Below the pieces are notes generated by a model. It ran no database searches, had not been told where the DNA came from, and was given only the letters and a program-made list of their open reading frames with translations. Shown piece after piece: positions 2,777-64,000 of a stretch of 64,000 bases of DNA (position 1 is its first letter; every line of letters starts with the position of its first letter). The position numbers and the translations under genes are program-made. The stretch lies in NCBI RefSeq assembly GCF_016026235.1, contig NZ_CP065613.1; one strand, given 5' to 3'. Source of the stretch: Escherichia coli (GTDB taxonomy: Bacteria; Pseudomonadota; Gammaproteobacteria; Enterobacterales; Enterobacteriaceae).

Positions 2777-3565
2777 ATGAAAATAGGCACACAGAATCAG
2801 GCATTCTTTCCGGAAAACATTCTGGAGAAATTTCGTTATATCAAAGAGATGGGCTTCGATGGTTTTGAGATTGACGGCAAACTGCTGGTCAACAATCTCG
2901 AAGAAGTCAAAGCAGCAATCAAAGAAACCGGTTTACCGGTGACCACCGCCTGCGGTGGCTATGACGGTTGGATTGGCGACTTTATCGAAGAGCGTCGTCT
3001 TAATGGCTTAAAGCAGATCGAACGCATTCTCGAAGCGCTGGCAGAAGTGGGGGGTAAGGGTATCGTCGTTCCGGCAGCGTGGGGCATGTTTACCTTCCGC
3101 TTACCGCCGATGACCTCGCCGCGTAGCCTGGACGGCGACCGCAAAATGGTGAGTGATTCCCTGCGCGTACTGGAACAGGTCGCCGCGCGTACCGGAACCG
3201 TGGTGTATCTCGAACCGTTAAACCGCTATCAGGATCATATGATCAACACCCTCGCCGATGCCCGCCGTTACATCGTCGAAAACGATCTTAAACATGTACA
3301 GATTATCGGCGATTTCTATCACATGAATATCGAAGAAGATAACCTGGCGCAGGCGCTGCATGACAACCGCGACCTGCTCGGTCATGTGCATATTGCGGAT
3401 AACCATCGCTACCAGCCGGGCAGCGGCACCCTGGATTTCCACGCGCTGTTTGAACAGCTGCGCGCGGATAACTATCAGGGCTATGTAGTGTACGAAGGGC
3501 GTATCCGGGCGGAAGATCCTGCCCAGGCGTACCGTGATTCGTTGGCCTGGTTGCGTACCTGCTAA
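2777..3565 (+). CDS. ycjR: sugar phosphate isomerase/epimerase (xylose isomerase-like TIM barrel)
   Basis: 262-aa ORF; synteny in ycj operon. Confidence 0.88.
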   Translation: MKIGTQNQAFFPENILEKFRYIKEMGFDGFEIDGKLLVNNLEEVKAAIKETGLPVTTACGGYDGWIGDFIEERRLNGLKQIERILEALAEVGGKGIVVPAAWGMFTFRLPPMTSPRSLDGDRKMVSDSLRVLEQVAARTGTVVYLEPLNRYQDHMINTLADARRYIVENDLKHVQIIGDFYHMNIEEDNLAQALHDNRDLLGHVHIADNHRYQPGSGTLDFHALFEQLRADNYQGYVVYEGRIRAEDPAQAYRDSLAWLRTC

Positions 3566-55742: not shown

Positions 55743-56099
55743 ATGGAAATAAAACCAGAAGATGAGTTAAGCAATATCGTTTTATTTCCGGTAAAAGAGG
55801 ATGACCCACGTAATCAGGTTAATTTTCTTTATGAACCATCGGAAAGACCATATTGCCATCACGCCTCTGTCCGGGTTGACGAAAAAGAGCGTCAGGTCCG
55901 CTGTAAAATCTGCGGTGCGGTTGTGGAGCCGTTTGACTGGATGCTCTCTGTGGCAAAAAGAGAAACCAGACTGGCAGATGATGTAAGGCTATTGCGCCAG
56001 GAGGAACAGGAAAGGCGGAGAAATATAGAAAAGCTGATACAGATTGAGCGTAACGCGAAAGCGCGGATACGCAGGGCGACAAAATCCAGAACTGAATAA
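55743..56099 (+). CDS. hypothetical prophage protein with zinc-ribbon-like Cys/His cluster
   Basis: Start at MEIKPEDE with gagagga RBS; CHH...CKIC then a basic coiled-coil tail. Confidence 0.5.
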   Translation: MEIKPEDELSNIVLFPVKEDDPRNQVNFLYEPSERPYCHHASVRVDEKERQVRCKICGAVVEPFDWMLSVAKRETRLADDVRLLRQEEQERRRNIEKLIQIERNAKARIRRATKSRTE

Positions 56100-56191
56100 T
56101 TAAATTTAGCACTGTTAAAAATTTAATCCTTAACCGGAGGGATTTCTGCACCCTCAAATCATCAGGAGACCGCCCGAAAGGGCGGTAATGA

Positions 56192-56410
56192 ATGGTTACA
56201 TTATTTAGAAAAAAATATCCGCGAAAGAGTAGAACAACAGAATTCCTGTTTCTCATTCTGTTTATCGTGTTGATGACACCGATATCCCCACTAATTTTTG
56301 TCTGGATAATCGGAAAAATAATTGAGCCAGTTATTGAATTGTATAACGACGTGGTATGGGCGTCATTCAACACACTGCACAATAAAATTAATCCGTATAA
56401 GGAAAGCTGA
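56192..56410 (+). CDS. small hydrophobic prophage protein (72 aa)
   Basis: ORF with one strongly hydrophobic segment. Confidence 0.3.
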   Translation: MVTLFRKKYPRKSRTTEFLFLILFIVLMTPISPLIFVWIIGKIIEPVIELYNDVVWASFNTLHNKINPYKES

Positions 56411-56411
56411 T

Positions 56412-56777
56412 ATGGCACTGACGAAAAAACAACGTGCAGAACTGCGCATGAAGTTCGGTGGTCGCTGCGCTTATTGCGGCTGCGAACTTGGCGAAAAGTG
56501 GCATGCAGACCATGTAAAACCGGTCATTCGTTTTGATGGAAATATGCTTCACCAGGAACGTGACGATATATCCAACATGGTACCAGCATGCCACCCATGC
56601 AATCTGCACAAGCATTGCAGTAGCCTGGAAGATTATCGACGAATTATCAGTGATGGTCGTCGTGAATTCCTTGCGTCCGGGAAAGGCAAAGCGCTGGTTC
56701 GTATGGGATTGGTTGAAATGAAATCTGACCCGGTTGTGTTCTGGTTTGAAAAATATCAAGAAGGGGCTACGGCATGA
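56412..56777 (+). CDS. HNH endonuclease
   Basis: CAYCGCEL...HADHVKPV...PACHPCNLHK motif set. Confidence 0.75.
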   Translation: MALTKKQRAELRMKFGGRCAYCGCELGEKWHADHVKPVIRFDGNMLHQERDDISNMVPACHPCNLHKHCSSLEDYRRIISDGRREFLASGKGKALVRMGLVEMKSDPVVFWFEKYQEGATA

Positions 56778-57439
56778 CCACTATTACCAAAGAGCGACTG
56801 CAATGGCTGGCTAACATTTCTGGCCGCGATGATATTGACGATATAGACGGCGGTGAAATTCGTGAACTGGCGCTTATCGCTCTGGCATCACTGGAAGCAG
56901 AGCCTGTAGCGGAATGCATTGTTGAAGATGGGGGCATGTGTATTGACGGGTTCGGTGAGTATGTGGGTCACTCGCTGCCTGATGGAATGCATGAGCTTTA
57001 TGCTGCCCCGCGAATGCGACAACCTGATGGATGGAAAGCCGTAGCTGTAGCGTGGAAGGTGACGTTTACTCAAGTTGACCAGGAATCTAATACGTTCACT
57101 GCTATATATTTTGACAAAGCGGAAGTTGAGCGTTGGGTACGACTGCATAAAGCATGTGATTTTCGGGCAGATATAACACCGCTTTACGCAGCGCCGGCAG
57201 TGCCGGTTGCAGTAAACGACGACATGGCTTACGCATTCCATCACGCACTGTCAGATTCATCGCTTGGCTCTGATGAAATCGAAGAAATTAAAACCGGTTT
57301 GCGTGCTGCCTTTGCCAACGTCACTATCCAACCAGAGCCGATAGTGCCGGATGAAATCGGGCCAAACGATAGTAATACGTTTGATTATGTTGATGGCTGG
57401 AACGCCTGCCGCGCTGCCATGCTTAAGGGAGATAAATAA
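56774..57439 (+). CDS. hypothetical prophage protein (221 aa)
   Basis: ORF with overlapping start/stop to neighbours; no recognised domain. Confidence 0.5.
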   Translation: MTTITKERLQWLANISGRDDIDDIDGGEIRELALIALASLEAEPVAECIVEDGGMCIDGFGEYVGHSLPDGMHELYAAPRMRQPDGWKAVAVAWKVTFTQVDQESNTFTAIYFDKAEVERWVRLHKACDFRADITPLYAAPAVPVAVNDDMAYAFHHALSDSSLGSDEIEEIKTGLRAAFANVTIQPEPIVPDEIGPNDSNTFDYVDGWNACRAAMLKGDK

Positions 57440-57804
57440 TGATTAATCGAACCAAACTGGAGCACATTCTCGAATATGCCAGGCAGCAGAAATGTATTGG
57501 GCAACTTTGTAAAATTCCACCAGGAGATATGGTTGAAATCGTGGAAATGGCCATGCGTAAGGCTGGCAACTCTCCGGTAACTCCGGCTGGCTGGATAAGC
57601 TGTAGTGATGCAGTTCCTGCTGAATATTGCGATGTGATTCTTCTCGATGATCTCGGGAATGTATTCCCCGGTTCCTGGGATAAGGTTTTTTGCCCCACTC
57701 GTGGCGGGAATAAGATGGCTTTTGTGGACAAAGACGGCGTTGAAGTAGAGAGCTCAACTCACTGGATGCCGCTACCGGAACCACCGCAGGAGGTGAATCA
57801 ATGA
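57439..57804 (+). CDS. DUF551-like phage protein
   Basis: C-terminal HWMPLPEPP motif typical of this phage family. Confidence 0.6.
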   Translation: MINRTKLEHILEYARQQKCIGQLCKIPPGDMVEIVEMAMRKAGNSPVTPAGWISCSDAVPAEYCDVILLDDLGNVFPGSWDKVFCPTRGGNKMAFVDKDGVEVESSTHWMPLPEPPQEVNQ

Positions 57805-57884
57805 CCTGGCCTGAGGCATTCACCACGGTAGGAATTGCGATGGCGGTGGCGCTGGTGGTGTATTCGATTTGCCGTTGGGGTTAA
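57801..57884 (+). CDS. 27-aa hydrophobic peptide
   Basis: MTWPEAFTTVGIAMAVALVVYSICRWG, ATGA overlap with upstream gene, terminator follows. Confidence 0.3.
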   Translation: MTWPEAFTTVGIAMAVALVVYSICRWG

Positions 57885-57890
57885 CAAACA

Positions 57891-57920
57891 AAAACCCCGG
57901 ATTGATGGTCCGGGGTTTTT
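57891..57920 (+). terminator. rho-independent terminator
   Basis: aaaaccccggattgatggtccggggttttt. Confidence 0.65.
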
Positions 57921-58258
57921 GAAGGAAACAAAACAGAAACAGCAATTGCCGTTACCTGTTGTTACCATGGCAAGTAAACGTATCTCAGGCGAGCGCATTG
58001 CGCCGTTCTGACGCAGATAAACTAGCCTGGATAGATGGTGCTGGCAATAAAAAATAGCGTTTTCTTATCGGTGTCGGTAAGATTGCTGCGGGTGCTTGAG
58101 GCTGTCTGCCTCGGGCATGTCACTGTAAGGCAGACAGAGAAAAGCCCCAGTTAACATTACGCGTCCTGCAAGACGCTTAACATTAATCTGAGGCCCAATC
58201 TATGTCTCACAAATGTAGGTTAGCCTCTTACGTGCCGAAAGGCAAGGAGAAGCAGGCT

Positions 58259-58414
58259 ATGAAGCAGCAAAAGGCGATGTTAATCGCCCTGATCGTCATC
58301 TGTTTAACCGTCATTGTGACGGCACTGGTAACGAGGAAAGACCTCTGCGAGGTACGAATCCGAACCGGCCAGACGGAGGTCGCTGTCTTCGTAGACTACG
58401 AATCTAGAGAGTAA
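58259..58414 (+). CDS. Hok/Gef-family type I toxin
   Basis: MKQQKAMLIALIVICLTVIVTALVTRKDLCEVRIRTGQTEVAVFVDYESRE; aaggag RBS. Confidence 0.8.
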   Translation: MKQQKAMLIALIVICLTVIVTALVTRKDLCEVRIRTGQTEVAVFVDYESRE

Positions 58415-58692
58415 GAGTGACCAGGCGGGAGAGTAATCTCCCGCCACCTTTGATGTGTCAGGCATCCTCAACGCACCCGCACTTAACCCGTTTCGGCGGT
58501 TTTTTTTGTTGCGTGCTGAATACGCAGGGTGAAAAATAACCATATATTTGATTATATACACAACAAAAAATAAAAGTCATTGTACTTGCACATTAAACAA
58601 TCAAATATACGGCGTGAAATAAATGTTTTTCAGATTAATATTTTTGTCTCTATGTGGATATAACCGTTTGTACTTATAAACCTGGAGGCATC

Positions 58693-58905
58693 GTGGAAAA
58701 AATAAAGAAACTATTTAGTAGCAAATACGCAGTCATACGTCGTGATGACCTGTCAGTTATAGTCGAAATGGATTACTTCCCTGAAACCCCAAAATCAATA
58801 ATGTATCGTAATGGTCGAAAGGCAATTTTTTTACCGATGAGGGTAAGTGACATTATGGGAAATGATAAACTGCTGGATGAATTGCGAGTCAGAGCATCCT
58901 GTTAG
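58693..58905 (+). CDS. hypothetical prophage protein (70 aa from GTG)
   Basis: ctggagg RBS before GTG at 58693; no recognised domain. Confidence 0.35.
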   Translation: MEKIKKLFSSKYAVIRRDDLSVIVEMDYFPETPKSIMYRNGRKAIFLPMRVSDIMGNDKLLDELRVRASC

Positions 58906-58976
58906 TATTGGCATTAATTCTGGTATACTACATAACGGGCTGAACACCCATTCTACTGCGCCAGCGGAGAACTACG

Positions 58977-59576
58977 ATGGCGCATATACAACTGGTCAAA
59001 CAAACCTCTTCCGGATTACTTCTCCCGGCGACGCCGGAGAGTTGCGATTTTTTGCATCAAATCAAAATAGGTGAGTGGATACACGCAGACTTTAAGCGTG
59101 TGCGTAACTACGCATTCCACAAGCGTTTTTTCAAACTCCTGCAACTGGGATTTGATTACTGGACTCCGGTCGGTGGGGCGATCACGCCTCGCGAACGAAA
59201 ACTGGTATCAGGCTTCGTTGATTACCTGTGCGAATCAGTAGGTCGGGAACACACTCCAGCCCTGAGTGATGCCGCAGAGCAATACCTTAATACAGTTGCG
59301 ACATGCAGAACCCGGGATACGGCATTGCTAAAGTCGTTTGACGCTTTCCGCGAGTGGGTAACCATTCAGGCCGGATTTTACACCGAGCATATTTATCCTG
59401 ATGGTAGTCGTGGGCGCAGGGCAAAATCTATCGCATTTGCGAACATGGACGAAACCGAGTTTCAGCAGGTTTATAAATCTGTACTGAATGTGCTGTGGAA
59501 CTGGATCCTGTTCCGTAAATTTTCCTCTCCGGAACAAGTCGAAAATGTGGCCGCGCAGCTACTGGAGTTTGCGTAA
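58977..59576 (+). CDS. hypothetical nin-region prophage protein (199 aa)
   Basis: ORF directly upstream of the YbcO-like gene. Confidence 0.5.
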   Translation: MAHIQLVKQTSSGLLLPATPESCDFLHQIKIGEWIHADFKRVRNYAFHKRFFKLLQLGFDYWTPVGGAITPRERKLVSGFVDYLCESVGREHTPALSDAAEQYLNTVATCRTRDTALLKSFDAFREWVTIQAGFYTEHIYPDGSRGRRAKSIAFANMDETEFQQVYKSVLNVLWNWILFRKFSSPEQVENVAAQLLEFA

Positions 59577-59866
59577 TGGTGGATTTACGTAAAGCGGCGC
59601 GGGGGCAGATGTGCACCGTCAGAATTCCTGGCTACTGCAATCACGATCCGGAAACGTCTGTGCTGGCGCATTACCGACTGGCGGGAACGTGCGGAACAGC
59701 GACAAAACCACACGATATGCAGGCGGCGATTGCCTGTAGCTCATGCCACGATTTAATCGACGGGCGGGTAAAAACAAGCGATTACACCAAAGAAGAATTA
59801 CGCCTGATACATGCAGAAGGTGTTTTTCGCACGCAAGAAATCTGGAGAAAGGAAGGTTATTTATGA
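59576..59866 (+). CDS. YbcO-like protein (DUF1364, putative nuclease)
   Basis: Cys-rich 96-aa ORF resembling DLP12 YbcO. Confidence 0.7.
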   Translation: MVDLRKAARGQMCTVRIPGYCNHDPETSVLAHYRLAGTCGTATKPHDMQAAIACSSCHDLIDGRVKTSDYTKEELRLIHAEGVFRTQEIWRKEGYL

Positions 59867-60417
59867 TTTACCCAACAAATACAGGCAAAAGCGGGGAACA
59901 CCTTCGTCTCACCACGCTGGAAAGTGTCTGGATTCAGGGAAAACTGCGCATGTGGGGGCGCTGGTCGTATATTGGCGGCGGTAAGACGGGGAATATGTTC
60001 AACCAGTTGTTGGCCTCTAAAAAGCTGACAAAAACGGCAATTAACGAGGCGCTCCGGAGGATGAAAAAAGCAGGTCTGGACAAACCTGAACTTGAGGCTT
60101 TTTTGCGGGATATGATCAACGGCAAGCAAAAAAGCTGGCTGGTGCATTGTACTGACGCAGAGGCGTTATGCATTGATCGGGTGATTAGTGAAGTGCTGGC
60201 AGAACACCCAGGATTGATTTGTATCCTCCGGCAACGATATGAAGGGAGTGGGATGACTAAGCGAAAAATGGCTGAATTGCTGAATGATTCACACCCTGAG
60301 TGGTGTTATCGGACGTGTTGCAGTCGGGTTGATGTATGGCTAAATCTTGCTGAATATATGCTCTATCTACCGATGCGTGATGCATTCTCTTCCGGGGATC
60401 TAAAAACCGTCTGTTGA
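59863..60417 (+). CDS. candidate late-gene antiterminator (Q-like by position)
   Basis: 185-aa ORF whose stop overlaps the -35 of a strong promoter followed by a terminator. Confidence 0.45.
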   Translation: MIYPTNTGKSGEHLRLTTLESVWIQGKLRMWGRWSYIGGGKTGNMFNQLLASKKLTKTAINEALRRMKKAGLDKPELEAFLRDMINGKQKSWLVHCTDAEALCIDRVISEVLAEHPGLICILRQRYEGSGMTKRKMAELLNDSHPEWCYRTCCSRVDVWLNLAEYMLYLPMRDAFSSGDLKTVC

Positions 60418-60443
60418 CTCAATCTGTTATCCGGGGCTATATT
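60414..60443 (+). promoter_or_regulatory. pR'-like late promoter
   Basis: TTGACT-18 bp-TATATT immediately after the Q-like stop. Confidence 0.5.
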
Positions 60444-60504
60444 CCTCACGCGCCAGCAAAATCTGGCGTCGGGATTGGCGTCCCGGATGTTTACGGAGCG
60501 ATAT

Positions 60505-60526
60505 GAGACGCGCCCGCGTCTTTTTT
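60505..60526 (+). terminator. tR'-like terminator
   Basis: gacgcgcccgcgtc hairpin plus T6, about 70 bp downstream of the promoter. Confidence 0.55.
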
Positions 60527-60689
60527 CATATCGTTTGCACAGTCTCATTCGCGATTTATGGCGGGCTGTGTGGGGGAGCCGAAAGGCTCGCCGGTTTCCG
60601 TACCCGGTTACGCCAACCCTGCACAGTTCGCCACCAGTTCGATTGGCGTCGTCGGTGGCGATAATTTCCAAATGTACGGAGTTATCGTT

Positions 60690-61247
60690 ATGACCACTCA
60701 AATCTCTGTTGAAACTCTCTCCCCGATCACCCATAACCAGATTCCTGTTATTACCACCGAACTTTTGGCGCAGCTTTACGGCACTGAGCCGGTGCGTATT
60801 CGCCAGAATCATCATGAGAACAAAGTACGCTTCGTTGAAGGGAAACACTTTTTCAAAGTTGTTGGTAATGACCTTAAAGAATTGCGGGTAGCTTTAAACT
60901 ACTCACAAAATCCCATCTCTCCCAAAGCCCGCTCCCTCATCCTCTGGACAGAACGAGGCGCAGCACGCCACGCCAAAATGCTCGAAACCGATCAGGCGTG
61001 GGATGTGTTCGAAAAACTGGAAGACTGCTATTTCAGTCAAAAGGATCCGTCAACGCCAGTTTCATGCCAGAAAAGTTACGACACGCGAGTTCTCTGTTAT
61101 CAGAGAGGCGGTGTCACTGTTTCCACAATTCAGTTACGGGATGATGATATTGTTATTTCCCTTGAGTCATGGCTGGAACTGGCGAGAGCCAATGGTTGGT
61201 TTGTTGTTCGCAGAGATAAACTGGTGGAAAGGTTGATGCAGCTTTAA
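60690..61247 (+). CDS. ORF6N-domain protein (KilA-N/Bro-N superfamily, antirepressor-like)
   Basis: ITTELLAQLYGTEPVRIRQNHHENKVRFVEGKHFFKVVGNDLKEL block; ggag RBS. Confidence 0.6.
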   Translation: MTTQISVETLSPITHNQIPVITTELLAQLYGTEPVRIRQNHHENKVRFVEGKHFFKVVGNDLKELRVALNYSQNPISPKARSLILWTERGAARHAKMLETDQAWDVFEKLEDCYFSQKDPSTPVSCQKSYDTRVLCYQRGGVTVSTIQLRDDDIVISLESWLELARANGWFVVRRDKLVERLMQL

Positions 61248-61344
61248 AAAAGTTCTTGCATTTTTGCACATAAACTGCTTCAATTCCGGTAAGCTTCGCA
61301 AAGCTGTATCGCGAGGCGAATAGCAGACATGGACATTTGAAAGA

Positions 61345-61367
61345 GCCCGCTTTATGCGGGTTTTTTT
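61345..61367 (+). terminator. rho-independent terminator
   Basis: agcccgctttatgcggg hairpin plus T7. Confidence 0.55.
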
Positions 61368-61455
61368 ATACCTGAAAAACGGCACAGGACGTTAAACGTG
61401 CTGGTGGTCAGATGAGTTTGCAGATGTGATGACATATGGTTATTATTCTGCCTCC

Positions 61456-61532
61456 GGCCCTTTAGCTCAGTTGGTCAGAGCGAGCGACTCATAATCGCCA
61501 GGTCGCTGGTTCAAGTCCAGCAAGGGCCACCA
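61456..61532 (+). tRNA. tRNA with anticodon CAT (Ile2/Met type)
   Basis: Manual cloverleaf: GGCCCTT acceptor, loop CTCATAA, T-arm GCTGG/CCAGC, CCA end. Confidence 0.8.
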
Positions 61533-61533
61533 A

Positions 61534-61610
61534 CCACCACTAGCTCATCCGGATAGAGCATCAACCTTCTAAGTTGACGGTGCGAGGTTCGAGTCCTCGG
61601 TGGTGGGCCA
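61534..61610 (+). tRNA. tRNA-Arg (anticodon TCT)
   Basis: Manual cloverleaf: CCACCAC acceptor, loop CTTCTAA, T-arm CGAGG/CCTCG, CCA end. Confidence 0.8.
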
Positions 61611-61612
61611 GC

Positions 61613-61688
<76 letters not shown>

Positions 61689-61691
61689 TAT

Positions 61692-61766
<75 letters not shown>

Positions 61767-62058
61767 GTCAGAGTCTTTCAGTCTGCGATGATGGGAAATC
61801 CCGGAGTGACTGAAAGACGTTTAAGTTATGAATGATCGCCTTTTTTTGCAAAATTGCTGTGCAGAAATACTAACCTTCGGGCGTGCGATCATTCATAAGC
61901 ACTCTGCTTTTATTCCGATTAACTGTGGGTGGTTTGTTGGATAGAGTGCTTTCCTTACTGTATATATCGTTTCGCCCGCTTTTGCGTTTTTTTCTTTTCA
62001 AATCCCTTTCATTTCTCAGTGTAAAACTACGCCATCCGTTATTTGCGGAGGTGAGGCT

Positions 62059-62274
62059 ATGAAATCCATGGACAAAATTTCAACGGGCATTGCCTACGGC
62101 ACCTCCGCCGGCAGTGCCGGCTACTGGTTTTTGCAGTGGTTGGATCAGGTCAGTCCATCACAGTGGGCTGCGATTGGTGTGCTGGGAAGTCTGCTTCTGG
62201 GGCTTCTGACTTATCTGACGAATCTGTATTTCAAAATAAGAGAAGACAAGCGTAAGGCTGCACGGGGAGAGTAA
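62059..62274 (+). CDS. class II holin (phage 21 S-like pinholin) with dual-start motif
   Basis: [28 protein letters not shown]...; Met1 and Met4 starts; two TM segments. Confidence 0.85.
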
Positions 62275-62277
62275 ATA

Positions 62278-62907
62278 ATGAAGCATGAAGAAATGAATCA
62301 GCGATTCAATCACCTGGAAAATGAAATCACTGAGCTTAATAAAAAATTGTCGGCGTTGGTGAGTTCTGAAGATGAAAACAAACGCCGCGATGAGCATTAT
62401 GCGGCGATTTACGATTACTGCCACAAAGTCGCTCACGAGACTTTTATGAAGTTTTTGCAGGAAAAGTTTTTACCGGCCGCATTGTCAGAAAAAGAGGCGG
62501 CTTACCTGCGGCCTGAGTACGTCATTACGGTTAACAGTGCCGGAGAGGAAGAGCATAAAAGTGATTTTATTGCGTCTGCACCGGATAAAGACCAGGAACC
62601 CCGTCGGCCTTTCAGGGTTTCCTGTGAAGAGGGTGAGTTCGTCGTTTATGAGAACGGAAAACCTGTCCGGGCATCGCATCATCACTGCCTGAAAATTATT
62701 AATCTCGCTATCAGATGCCTGAAAGACGAAAACACCAGAGTTATGAAACGCATTGGCCGTTGCATGGGGTATTTGCAGGTGGCGGCAGAGATTGAAGCAC
62801 TTGCCAGTGGTGCAGACATGGATGCTGCGGTGCGGGAGGCTCTTCTTCGTGATTTCAATACTCCCCCTTTAAGAAAGAGCCTGATGACTGGATCCAGCCG
62901 GGGCTGA
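62278..62907 (+). CDS. hypothetical protein (209 aa) between holin and endolysin
   Basis: Uninterrupted ORF starting 4 bp after the holin stop; coiled-coil N-terminus, no TM segment, no recognised domain. Confidence 0.6.
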   Translation: MKHEEMNQRFNHLENEITELNKKLSALVSSEDENKRRDEHYAAIYDYCHKVAHETFMKFLQEKFLPAALSEKEAAYLRPEYVITVNSAGEEEHKSDFIASAPDKDQEPRRPFRVSCEEGEFVVYENGKPVRASHHHCLKIINLAIRCLKDENTRVMKRIGRCMGYLQVAAEIEALASGADMDAAVREALLRDFNTPPLRKSLMTGSSRG

Positions 62908-62972
62908 CTTATCTTAAAAGGCGTATATAAGTTGGCTCGTTATTTGTTGCCGATAAATCCTGATAAATATCC

Positions 62973-63506
62973 ATGAGCGCAAAAATCAAATACGGCCTGT
63001 CGGCTGCTGTTCTGGCGCTGATTGCCGCAGGCGCGTCTGCTCCCCAGATACTTGACCAGTTTCTGAACGAAAAAGAGGGTAATCACACAACGGCATACCG
63101 TGATGGTTCTGGCATATGGACCATCTGTCGTGGTGCCACAATGGTGGATGGTAAGCCTGTCATACCGGGAATGAAGCTGTCGAAGGAAAAATGTGACCAG
63201 GTTAACGCTATTGAACGTGATAAGGCGCTGGCATGGGTGGAGCGCAATATTAAAGTACCTCTGACCGAACCACAAAAAGCGGGTATAGCGTCATTTTGCC
63301 CCTATAACATTGGCCCCGGTAAGTGTTTCCCGTCGACGTTTTATAAGCGGCTGAATGCCGGTGATCGTAAGGGCGCATGCGAGGCGATTCGCTGGTGGAT
63401 AAAAGATGTTGGGCGCGATTGCCGCATACGTTCAAATAACTGCTATGGACAGGTTATTCGTCGTGACCAGGAAAGCGCATTAGCCTGTTGGGGGATAGAT
63501 CAATGA
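62973..63506 (+). CDS. SAR endolysin (lysozyme, phage 21 R-like)
   Basis: N-terminal signal-anchor-release segment [18 protein letters not shown]; lysozyme sequence. Confidence 0.85.
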
Positions 63507-63970
63507 GCAGAGTCACCGCGATTATCTCCGCTCTGGTTATCTGCATCATCGTCTGCCTGTCATGGGCTGTTAATCATTACCGTGATAACGCCATTACCTA
63601 CAAAGAGCAGCGCGACAAAAACGCAAGAGAACTGAAGCTGGCGAACGCAACCATTACTGACATGCAGCAGCGCCAGCGTTCTGTTGATGCACTCGATGCT
63701 AAATACACGAAGGAGTTAGCTGATGCGAAAGCTGAAAATGATGCTCTTCGGCGCAAGCTTGATAATGGTGGTCGGGTGCTCGTCAAAGGAAAATGCCCTG
63801 TGCCAGCCTCAGCCAAAACCTCCAGCGCCTCCGGCATGGGCAATGATGCCACCGTCGAACTCTCTTCAGTTGCTGGACGAAACGTTCTCGGTATCCGGGA
63901 CGGAATTATCCGCGACCAAACAGCACTGAGAACGCTTCAGGAATACATCAATACGCAATGCCTGAATTAA
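63503..63970 (+). CDS. i-spanin Rz
   Basis: N-terminal TM segment then coiled coil; overlaps the endolysin end. Confidence 0.75.
63723..63929 (+). CDS. o-spanin Rz1 (lipoprotein embedded in Rz in the +1 frame)
   Basis: Lipobox LIMVVGCSS and proline-rich PPAPPAW. Confidence 0.7.
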
Positions 63971-64000
63971 TCCCTCTGTATCAAAAACGAACTCAATTTG

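Follow-up and report, generated by a model that had tools for sequence, protein, structure and literature searches.

In the Qin prophage of Escherichia coli K-12 the lysis genes follow the order essQ(essD)-ydfR-rrrQ-rzpQ. The slot between holin and lysozyme is thus filled by ydfR, which starts 4 nt after the holin stop codon and encodes a protein of 103 aa (P76160, PF07041). Residues 1–72 of K-12 YdfR, which make up the DUF1327 domain, bind the N-terminal (catalytic) half of RNase E in bacterial two-hybrid and pull-down experiments, RNA co-purifies with this domain, and overexpression of YdfR has little effect on the transcriptome (PMC13232886, 2026). Longer members of the YdfR family occupy the same slot and are catalogued as phrog_1085, including gp05 of Stx2-converting phage 86 (YP_794052.1, 268 aa), a 268-aa protein of HUSEC2011 and 296-aa forms in E. 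coli. In these long forms a YdfR-type DUF1327 domain is joined to a further module, consisting of a coiled coil and a C-terminal domain (C-domain). The literature found on DUF1327 and YdfR, which comprises the RNase E study and one mention in a genomics paper, does not treat this module.

Soluble regulators are encoded beside holins in other lysis systems. P1 LydB and T4 RIII are small cytoplasmic proteins which are co-expressed with a holin and act as soluble antiholins or lysis regulators. Their likeness to the gene described here is one of position and logic only, as we found no sequence or fold similarity between them and its product in PHROGs, Pfam, the PDB or AFDB.

Here we describe a gene encoding the coiled coil and C-domain of the long YdfR proteins, found between holin and lysozyme in a 64,000-nucleotide stretch of E. 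coli DNA (the window). A reading made from the letters of the window, without database searches (the sequence-only reading), had presented it as an unrecognised gene breaking up a lysis cassette which normally runs uninterrupted. Neither part of this description held: the gene belongs to phrog_1085, being homologous to the C-terminal two-thirds of long YdfR proteins, and in E. coli lambdoid prophages the slot is usually filled by a YdfR/DUF1327-family gene, as seen in Qin, in a sample drawn from 4606 genomes and in all 80 viral loci that we surveyed. The sequence family is therefore already known and catalogued, and the gene, far from being a singular insertion, is frequently met in what is a standard slot.

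Gene order and expression signals

All genes of the cassette lie on the + strand. The upstream neighbour is a class II (S21-like) holin at 62059–62274 (71 aa, with the dual-start motif MKSMDK); the corresponding gene in the identical locus of E. coli CFSAN029787 is annotated as 'class II holin family protein'. The slot ORF follows at 62278–62907, with an ATG start and a TGA stop at 62905–62907; both the ORF list and direct reading of the sequence give a product of 209 aa, placed between holin and SAR endolysin just as the sequence-only reading had it. Downstream are an RrrQ-like SAR lysozyme at 62973–63506 (177 aa) and the spanins, with Rz (i-spanin) at 63503–63970 and Rz1 (o-spanin) embedded in it at 63723–63929.

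The holin stop codon (62272–62274) lies 3 nt ahead of the slot-ORF ATG, which is nearly the same spacing as in Qin. A GGAG Shine-Dalgarno sequence at 62266–62269, 8 nt before the ATG, falls within the end of the holin gene, and this placement suggests that translation of the slot ORF is coupled to that of the holin. A consensus scan found no terminator-like or + strand promoter-like sites above chance between holin, ORF and lysozyme. The absence of a terminator makes the ORF part of the late transcript, in agreement with the earlier proposal that it is co-transcribed with the lysis genes; with its own Shine-Dalgarno sequence and no flanking terminator, the protein would be made late, alongside the lysis proteins. 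Rfam searches found no RNA element inside the ORF, with matches limited to four upstream tRNAs.

These signals bear on the suggestion, also made in the sequence-only reading, that the gene is moron-type cargo serving defence or superinfection exclusion. The late region from Q to the lysis genes is known to house accessory genes, stx, bor and nanS-p among them, and the gene is variable and mosaic, as such cargo would be. However, the scan found no + strand promoter-like site within or between the holin gene and the slot ORF, and the gene is accordingly not expected to be expressed in the lysogen; PADLOC returned no match, and neither an enzymatic nor a sensor domain is present in the protein. 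We consider a defence function very improbable.

The four tRNA genes stand in tandem at 61456–61766, between a Q-like region and the holin, and were called by ARAGORN as Met(CAT), Arg(TCT), Thr(TGT) and Gly(TCC); in the identical CFSAN029787 locus the CAT tRNA is given as tRNA-Ile by RefSeq. Upstream of the tRNAs, positions 56000–62000 are mosaic relative to CFSAN029787 and include a DUF1133 Q-like ORF at 59743–60417 and an ORF6N-domain ORF at 60558–61247. There was no end-to-end match to 56000–64000 among the complete E. coli genomes in the collection, the best having 80% coverage at 96% identity. It should also be noted that the lysozyme (62973–63506) differs from that of HUSEC2011 within an 11-residue stretch, which reads WWIKDGGRDCR in HUSEC2011 and in K-12 RrrQ.

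Family identity and distribution

A search against PHROGs matched residues 1–209 to positions 117–288 of the 296-position phrog_1085 profile (hmmscan, E = 3.9e−74), a family labelled as of unknown function, and at the level of sequence this assignment is unambiguous. The same DNA and protein are present in E. coli CFSAN029787, where the product is a 'hypothetical protein' (WP_001300760.1) in a holin-X-lysozyme-Rz context, and the exact 209-aa protein occurs in 379 public contigs from E. coli (e.g. O28ac) and Shigella flexneri. Its relatives include many E. coli proteins of 268–333 aa named 'YdfR family' or 'DUF1327 domain-containing', and in homologues of 287–333 aa an N-terminal PF07041 domain is followed by the coiled coil and C-terminal domain of the window protein. 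The coiled coil is shared with the long YdfR proteins, as is the C-domain, the latter at 43–84% identity, Stx2 phage 86 gp05 being one example of a protein whose C-terminal two-thirds are homologous to the window protein. Judged from these alignments, the window protein corresponds to a long YdfR-family protein minus DUF1327 and is encoded by a gene of its own. It has no sequence overlap with K-12 YdfR, which consists of DUF1327 and a short helix, the window protein being all but DUF1327. Relative to the long forms it lacks the N-terminal DUF1327 and, through a 1-bp deletion, an invariant C-terminal tail.

DUF1327 is missing from the window as a whole: Pfam gave no PF07041 match in the protein, tblastn with DUF1327 against the entire window found nothing (best E = 0.18), and there is no room for the domain upstream because the holin stops only 3 nt before the ATG. 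The architecture is not peculiar to this gene. E. coli 'hypothetical proteins' of 185 and 213 aa (e.g. P0030, P0064) and of 217 aa (P0002, P0006) have the same coil, linker and C-domain at 50–90% identity and, like the window allele, start directly after the holin.

The family is very narrow. Searches with phmmer and hmmsearch returned 132–231 family clusters, the 231 coming from the profile search at 90% identity. There were 37 matches among 1.84 billion representative proteins, and among 50,697 phage genomes the family was present in only five records, all of them Stx2 phages. All of the named members come from Escherichia, Shigella or Salmonella and are prophage-borne. DNA of the 3′ C-domain was found in 786 of 5426 complete E. 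coli genomes (~14%).

Searches for a described function returned nothing. No Pfam match below E = 0.01 was found with either the protein or the C-domain alignment, NCBIfam and PADLOC gave no match to the window protein, PADLOC matched the long form only at chance level (E = 0.018), and sequence searches of the PDB with the single protein and with the profile found nothing. A HEAT-repeat match (P0140) and a repeat protein (P0150) in the representative search were judged to be spurious low-complexity or helical matches. The earlier remark that the protein carries no recognised signature is thus accurate for Pfam, NCBIfam, PADLOC and the PDB, by sequence or by fold, and inaccurate in that the gene is catalogued as phrog_1085 and WP_001300760.1. 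Its description as a gene of undescribed function stands, as there was no match to a characterised family by sequence or fold.

We also examined selection on the gene. The dN/dS ratio was 0.15–0.4 in the C-domain and 0.45–1 in the N-terminal region. Together with the 379 contigs and 231 clusters, the C-domain values mark a real gene family and not a chance ORF, and they indicate purifying selection on the family, which acts most strongly on the C-domain and tail. Homology blocks in other prophages begin at ~62743 (inside the C-domain, at MKRIGRCMG) or at ~62942–62963 (just before the lysozyme), and dS is far lower in the tail (0.1–0.17) than in the C-domain core (up to 2). These block starts and the contrast in dS across 62743–62972 look like mosaic recombination boundaries.

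Protein architecture and predicted structure

The 209-aa protein is hydrophilic (GRAVY −0.64). Kyte-Doolittle hydropathy over 19 residues peaks at 0.76, which leaves no transmembrane segment, as the sequence-only reading had noted, and the protein is predicted to be soluble and cytoplasmic. We found that it comprises three parts: a coiled coil, a variable acidic linker and a conserved alpha/beta domain of ~110 residues.

The helical heptad coiled-coil module, residues 1–63 (62278–62466, + strand), was delimited by PHROG sub-hits, AF2 helices, heptads and alignment. The coiled coil that had been proposed for the N-terminus is borne out by a 3-4 heptad pattern over residues 6–27 (M6, F10, L13, I17, L20, L24 and L27) and by AF2 helices at residues 3–27 and 33–63. 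This module is common to long YdfR proteins and to proteins made up of DUF1327 and the coil (phrog_2091, phrog_15975 and phrog_36381). The acidic variable linker, residues 64–110 (62467–62607, + strand), was delimited from alignment and AF2; with pLDDT values of 24–50 it is probably disordered, and depending on the homologue it is kept, missing or swapped for other sequence. The C-domain core occupies residues 111–197 (62608–62868, + strand), as defined by alignments, the AF2 model and dN/dS, and contains the invariant residues H136, I145, L148, G160, R161, L166, Q167, A169, E173, L190 and P197.

Cysteine and histidine residues in the C-terminal half had drawn attention in the sequence-only reading. 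They are present, but they do not form a conserved motif: C116, H134, H135, C137 and C147 vary, C162 is A or S in several homologues, and H136 alone is invariant. A zinc-finger reading was therefore rejected and a metal-binding site is unlikely.

A full-length AF2 model, built on the sequence with the frame repaired and a 19-sequence alignment, had a mean pLDDT of 62 with disorder at residues 72–108, and the C-domain modelled alone reached a pLDDT of 75.7 and a pTM of 0.70. These models are of moderate confidence and the alignment underlying them is shallow (18–19 sequences). In the predicted C-domain fold a three-strand beta-meander leads into three helices, with a further short helix at the end. 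A Foldseek search of this domain against AFDB50 recovered only the members of the family itself, which are uncharacterised 'phage proteins' of E. coli, Shigella and Salmonella, some of them named 'DUF1327', and nothing else below E = 0.8. The modelled fold thus has no relatives outside the family.

A frameshift has removed the conserved C-terminal tail

In a DNA alignment (A1) the window allele carries a 1-bp deletion relative to all other alleles. The site is a run of five C at 62863–62867 (+ strand), identified by DNA alignment and tblastn, where relatives have CCACCC and the window has CCCCC; the surrounding DNA reads ACGCCACCCTTTAAG in relatives and ACTCC-CCCTTTAAG in the window. As a result the invariant tail PPFKKEPDDWIQPGLTYLKRRI is replaced by 12 out-of-frame residues, encoded by the last 12 codons before the stop. 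Other alleles, the short forms among them, end in frame in ...DFNTPPFKKEPDDWIQPGLTYLKxRI, whereas the window protein ends in ...DFNTPPLRKSLMTGSSRG and its near-identical copies in O28ac and Shigella flexneri have likewise lost the tail frame.

The ancestral tail can still be read in the −1 frame at 62868–62930 (+ strand) as FKKEPDDWIQPGLTYLKRRI, followed by a TAA stop at 62928–62930, and tblastn recovers tail residues 193–217 in another frame. This relic carries seven of the 18 family-invariant residues (F198, K199, W205, P208, G209, Y212 and L213), with an eighth, P197, at the junction.

In every other allele the tail has an invariant basic and aromatic consensus, PPFKxxPxxWxxPGxxYLKxRI. Of the 18 positions that are invariant across 19 aligned sequences (33–83% identity), 8 fall in the tail, which is also conserved in the most divergent homologues, including Salmonella proteins at 35–48% identity. 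The motif P-F-K-x2-P-x2-W-x2-P-G-x2-Y-L was in frame in 68 of the 80 loci that we surveyed, the 12 exceptions being the window allele. Compared with E. coli relatives the tail gave dN/dS values of 0–0.25, and compared with the Stx2-86 gene a value of 0.65. The deletion is carried by every allele which shares more than 99% identity with the window, and the ORF differs by at most 1 nt across the 12 viral contigs with this allele, so the deletion is recent or tolerated.

The deletion raises the possibility that the ORF is a decaying, inactive pseudogene, an N-terminally shortened and C-terminally frameshifted remnant which NCBI still calls as a CDS. Eight of the 18 invariant residues have been removed with the tail, DUF1327 is absent, 9 of the 80 related loci have other disruptions, and the allele is common in Shigella flexneri, a host whose prophages are often degraded. 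Several observations make this reading rather doubtful. Residues 1–197, the entire folded core, are intact, and none of 12 independent contigs has a second lesion. The missing N-terminal domain is not a sign of decay, since short forms without DUF1327 (185–213 aa) are a common and intact architecture (25 of the 80 loci). In addition, a shifty heptamer at the deletion could yield some full-length product.

This heptamer, C_CCT_TTA, lies at 62865–62871 (+ strand) in the zero frame of the ORF, as read directly from the sequence. The deletion sets CCCTTTA exactly in X_XXY_YYZ register, and a −1 slip there would restore the frame of the ancestral tail. Sharma et al. (PMC4066793) list C_CC.U_UU.A among the heptamers at which −1 frameshifting in E. 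coli exceeds 0.1% even when no stimulator is present. The window allele could be read as a programmed −1 frameshift gene which yields a zero-frame protein of 209 aa and, by slippage at C_CCU_UUA, a second isoform of 217 aa with the tail: E. coli genes contain this shifty heptamer less often than expected (PMC4066793), and the −1 frame reads the intact conserved tail through to its stop codon. We regard such programming as exceedingly unlikely. There is no stimulatory RNA structure downstream of the heptamer (z = +0.35) and no Shine-Dalgarno-like stimulator at the right distance, no other allele needs a frameshift, and CCCTTTA is found in all alleles only because it encodes Pro-Phe-Lys. The expected efficiency is basal, and we consider nothing beyond basal 'saviour' slippage at C_CCU_UUA plausible. 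Lacking both DUF1327 and the tail, the window copy is probably functionally impaired, unless low-level −1 slippage restores some full-length protein. It should be noted that the frameshifted allele, which is nearly invariant across the 12 viral contigs and present on 379 public contigs, carries a lesion that is recent or tolerated and does not imply loss of function.

The holin-lysozyme slot in related prophages

We compared the slot across prophages in two ways. The holin-lysozyme region has matches in 4606 E. coli genomes, and a sample spread across these repeatedly showed a gene named 'YdfR family' or 'DUF1327 domain-containing' between holin and lysozyme. In 80 IMG/VR viral loci fetched with the C-domain profile, the family gene was directly upstream of the lysozyme in all 80 and downstream of a holin in 78, the contigs of the other two lacking that stretch; the gene is thus present in the holin-lysozyme slot of related prophage cassettes. 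The DUF1327-fused architecture was found in 34 of these loci (296 aa in 28, 328–385 aa in 6), intact short forms in 25 (185 aa in 23, 213 aa in 2), the 209-aa allele of the window in 12 and a disrupted or partial family gene in 9. Salmonella prophages carry the homologue between Q and holin, immediately upstream of the holin.

In Stx2-converting phage 86 the order is S, gp05 (268 aa, YdfR-family), a small convergent ORF and R. The O104:H4 strain HUSEC2011 has an intact 268-aa family ORF in its Stx2a prophage. At this locus (L012, 1183–1989) the PGAP annotation ('YdfR family protein, incomplete') stops after the first 336 nt, and a single 268-aa ORF spans the whole. Of the 786 genomes with C-domain DNA, many of those without an annotated feature over it are likely to share this partial annotation, and the idea of widespread unannotated 3′ 'remnants' was dropped, the HUSEC2011 case being an intact ORF.

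This small convergent ORF (~105 aa), which is conserved and directly follows the family gene, belongs to phrog_1853, which is labelled as of unknown function and has no Pfam match. It was found in Stx2-86, in E. coli A34, in two divergent metagenomic homologue loci and in 3 of the 80 IMG/VR loci (− strand; L007 3843–4157, L004 2902–3258, L005 2378–2713 and L006 585–902), and is absent from the window; its product may be a functional partner of the family. Some prophages have a short form (coil and C-domain) followed by a separate DUF1327-only ORF, at 3170–3397 in L003 and ~30 nt after the short form in L029, L030 and L036. These neighbouring genes correspond to the halves of the long protein in swapped order.

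The constancy of this neighbourhood is the main argument for a cytoplasmic regulator of lysis timing, which, by analogy with the soluble antiholins P1 LydB or T4 RIII, would tune the lysis trigger by binding either the SAR endolysin before its release or the cytoplasmic C-terminal tail of the S21-type pinholin. Wherever the family occurs, its neighbours are a class II holin and a lysozyme (it lies between the two in E. coli and immediately before the holin in Salmonella), the slot ORF appears to be translationally coupled to the holin, and the protein is soluble and cytoplasmic. We nevertheless hold this function to be unlikely. The protein has no sequence or fold likeness to any known lysis regulator, and a check for known lysis accessory proteins by transmembrane segment, lipobox or signal sequence, profile and fold found none. 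The dual start MKSMDK of the holin already provides an antiholin, and shared synteny may just reflect common descent of lambdoid late regions. Furthermore, in otherwise identical cassettes the gene is often missing, truncated or swapped for a DUF1327-only YdfR, from which it follows that it is dispensable for lysis. The lysis-regulator and defence roles offered by the sequence-only reading were guesses from position.

Discussion

Our best explanation is that the window gene is a short-form, frameshift-truncated member of phrog_1085, at 62278–62907, whose family most likely acts together with DUF1327 in host RNA metabolism, and that this copy is probably impaired. We give this reading a probability of about 0.5. 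Its functional part relies on domain fusion: about half of the intact family members carry the module joined to DUF1327 through the same coiled coil, and the fusion recurs in divergent homologues of the Salmonella type, whose N-termini weakly resemble YdfR (pairwise E = 4e−4). This fusion suggests that the module and DUF1327 serve a common process. What has been reported on RNase E and RNA maps to the DUF1327 of K-12 YdfR, a domain which is absent from the window, and domain fusion points to a functional link without specifying its kind.

Within a coiled-coil oligomer that targets host RNA metabolism late in infection, the module would most likely form the partner or effector end. The oligomer would be held together by the coiled coil, leaving the C-domain with its tail to bind a further partner. 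The module probably does not belong to the holin-endolysin-spanin machinery itself. That it is linked to a class II holin and a lysozyme in E. coli as well as in Salmonella nonetheless suits a lysis-related role equally well.

A bolder version of this proposal would make the C-domain and tail the effector half of an undescribed phage system that reprograms host RNA decay, or couples decay to lysis, late in lambdoid and Stx-phage development. In such a system the short forms would be split subunits joining DUF1327-coil proteins of co-resident prophages, and a saviour −1 slip would supply the tail in the window allele. This is speculative, and we give it only a small chance of being correct.

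Returning to the reading that we prefer, in which the module works with DUF1327 in host RNA metabolism, the value of the finding lies at the level of the family, in its link to RNase E and RNA, and not in the window allele. As the window copy has no tail it is a poor choice for functional work, for which the intact short forms (185, 213 and 217 aa) or long forms (268 and 296 aa) are preferable. The slot between holin and endolysin in E. coli lambdoid prophages is routinely filled by a modular YdfR-family gene, including in Stx2 phages and the prophage of the O104:H4 outbreak, and the fusion of this module to an RNase E-binding domain provides a concrete hypothesis for the role of these late-operon genes.
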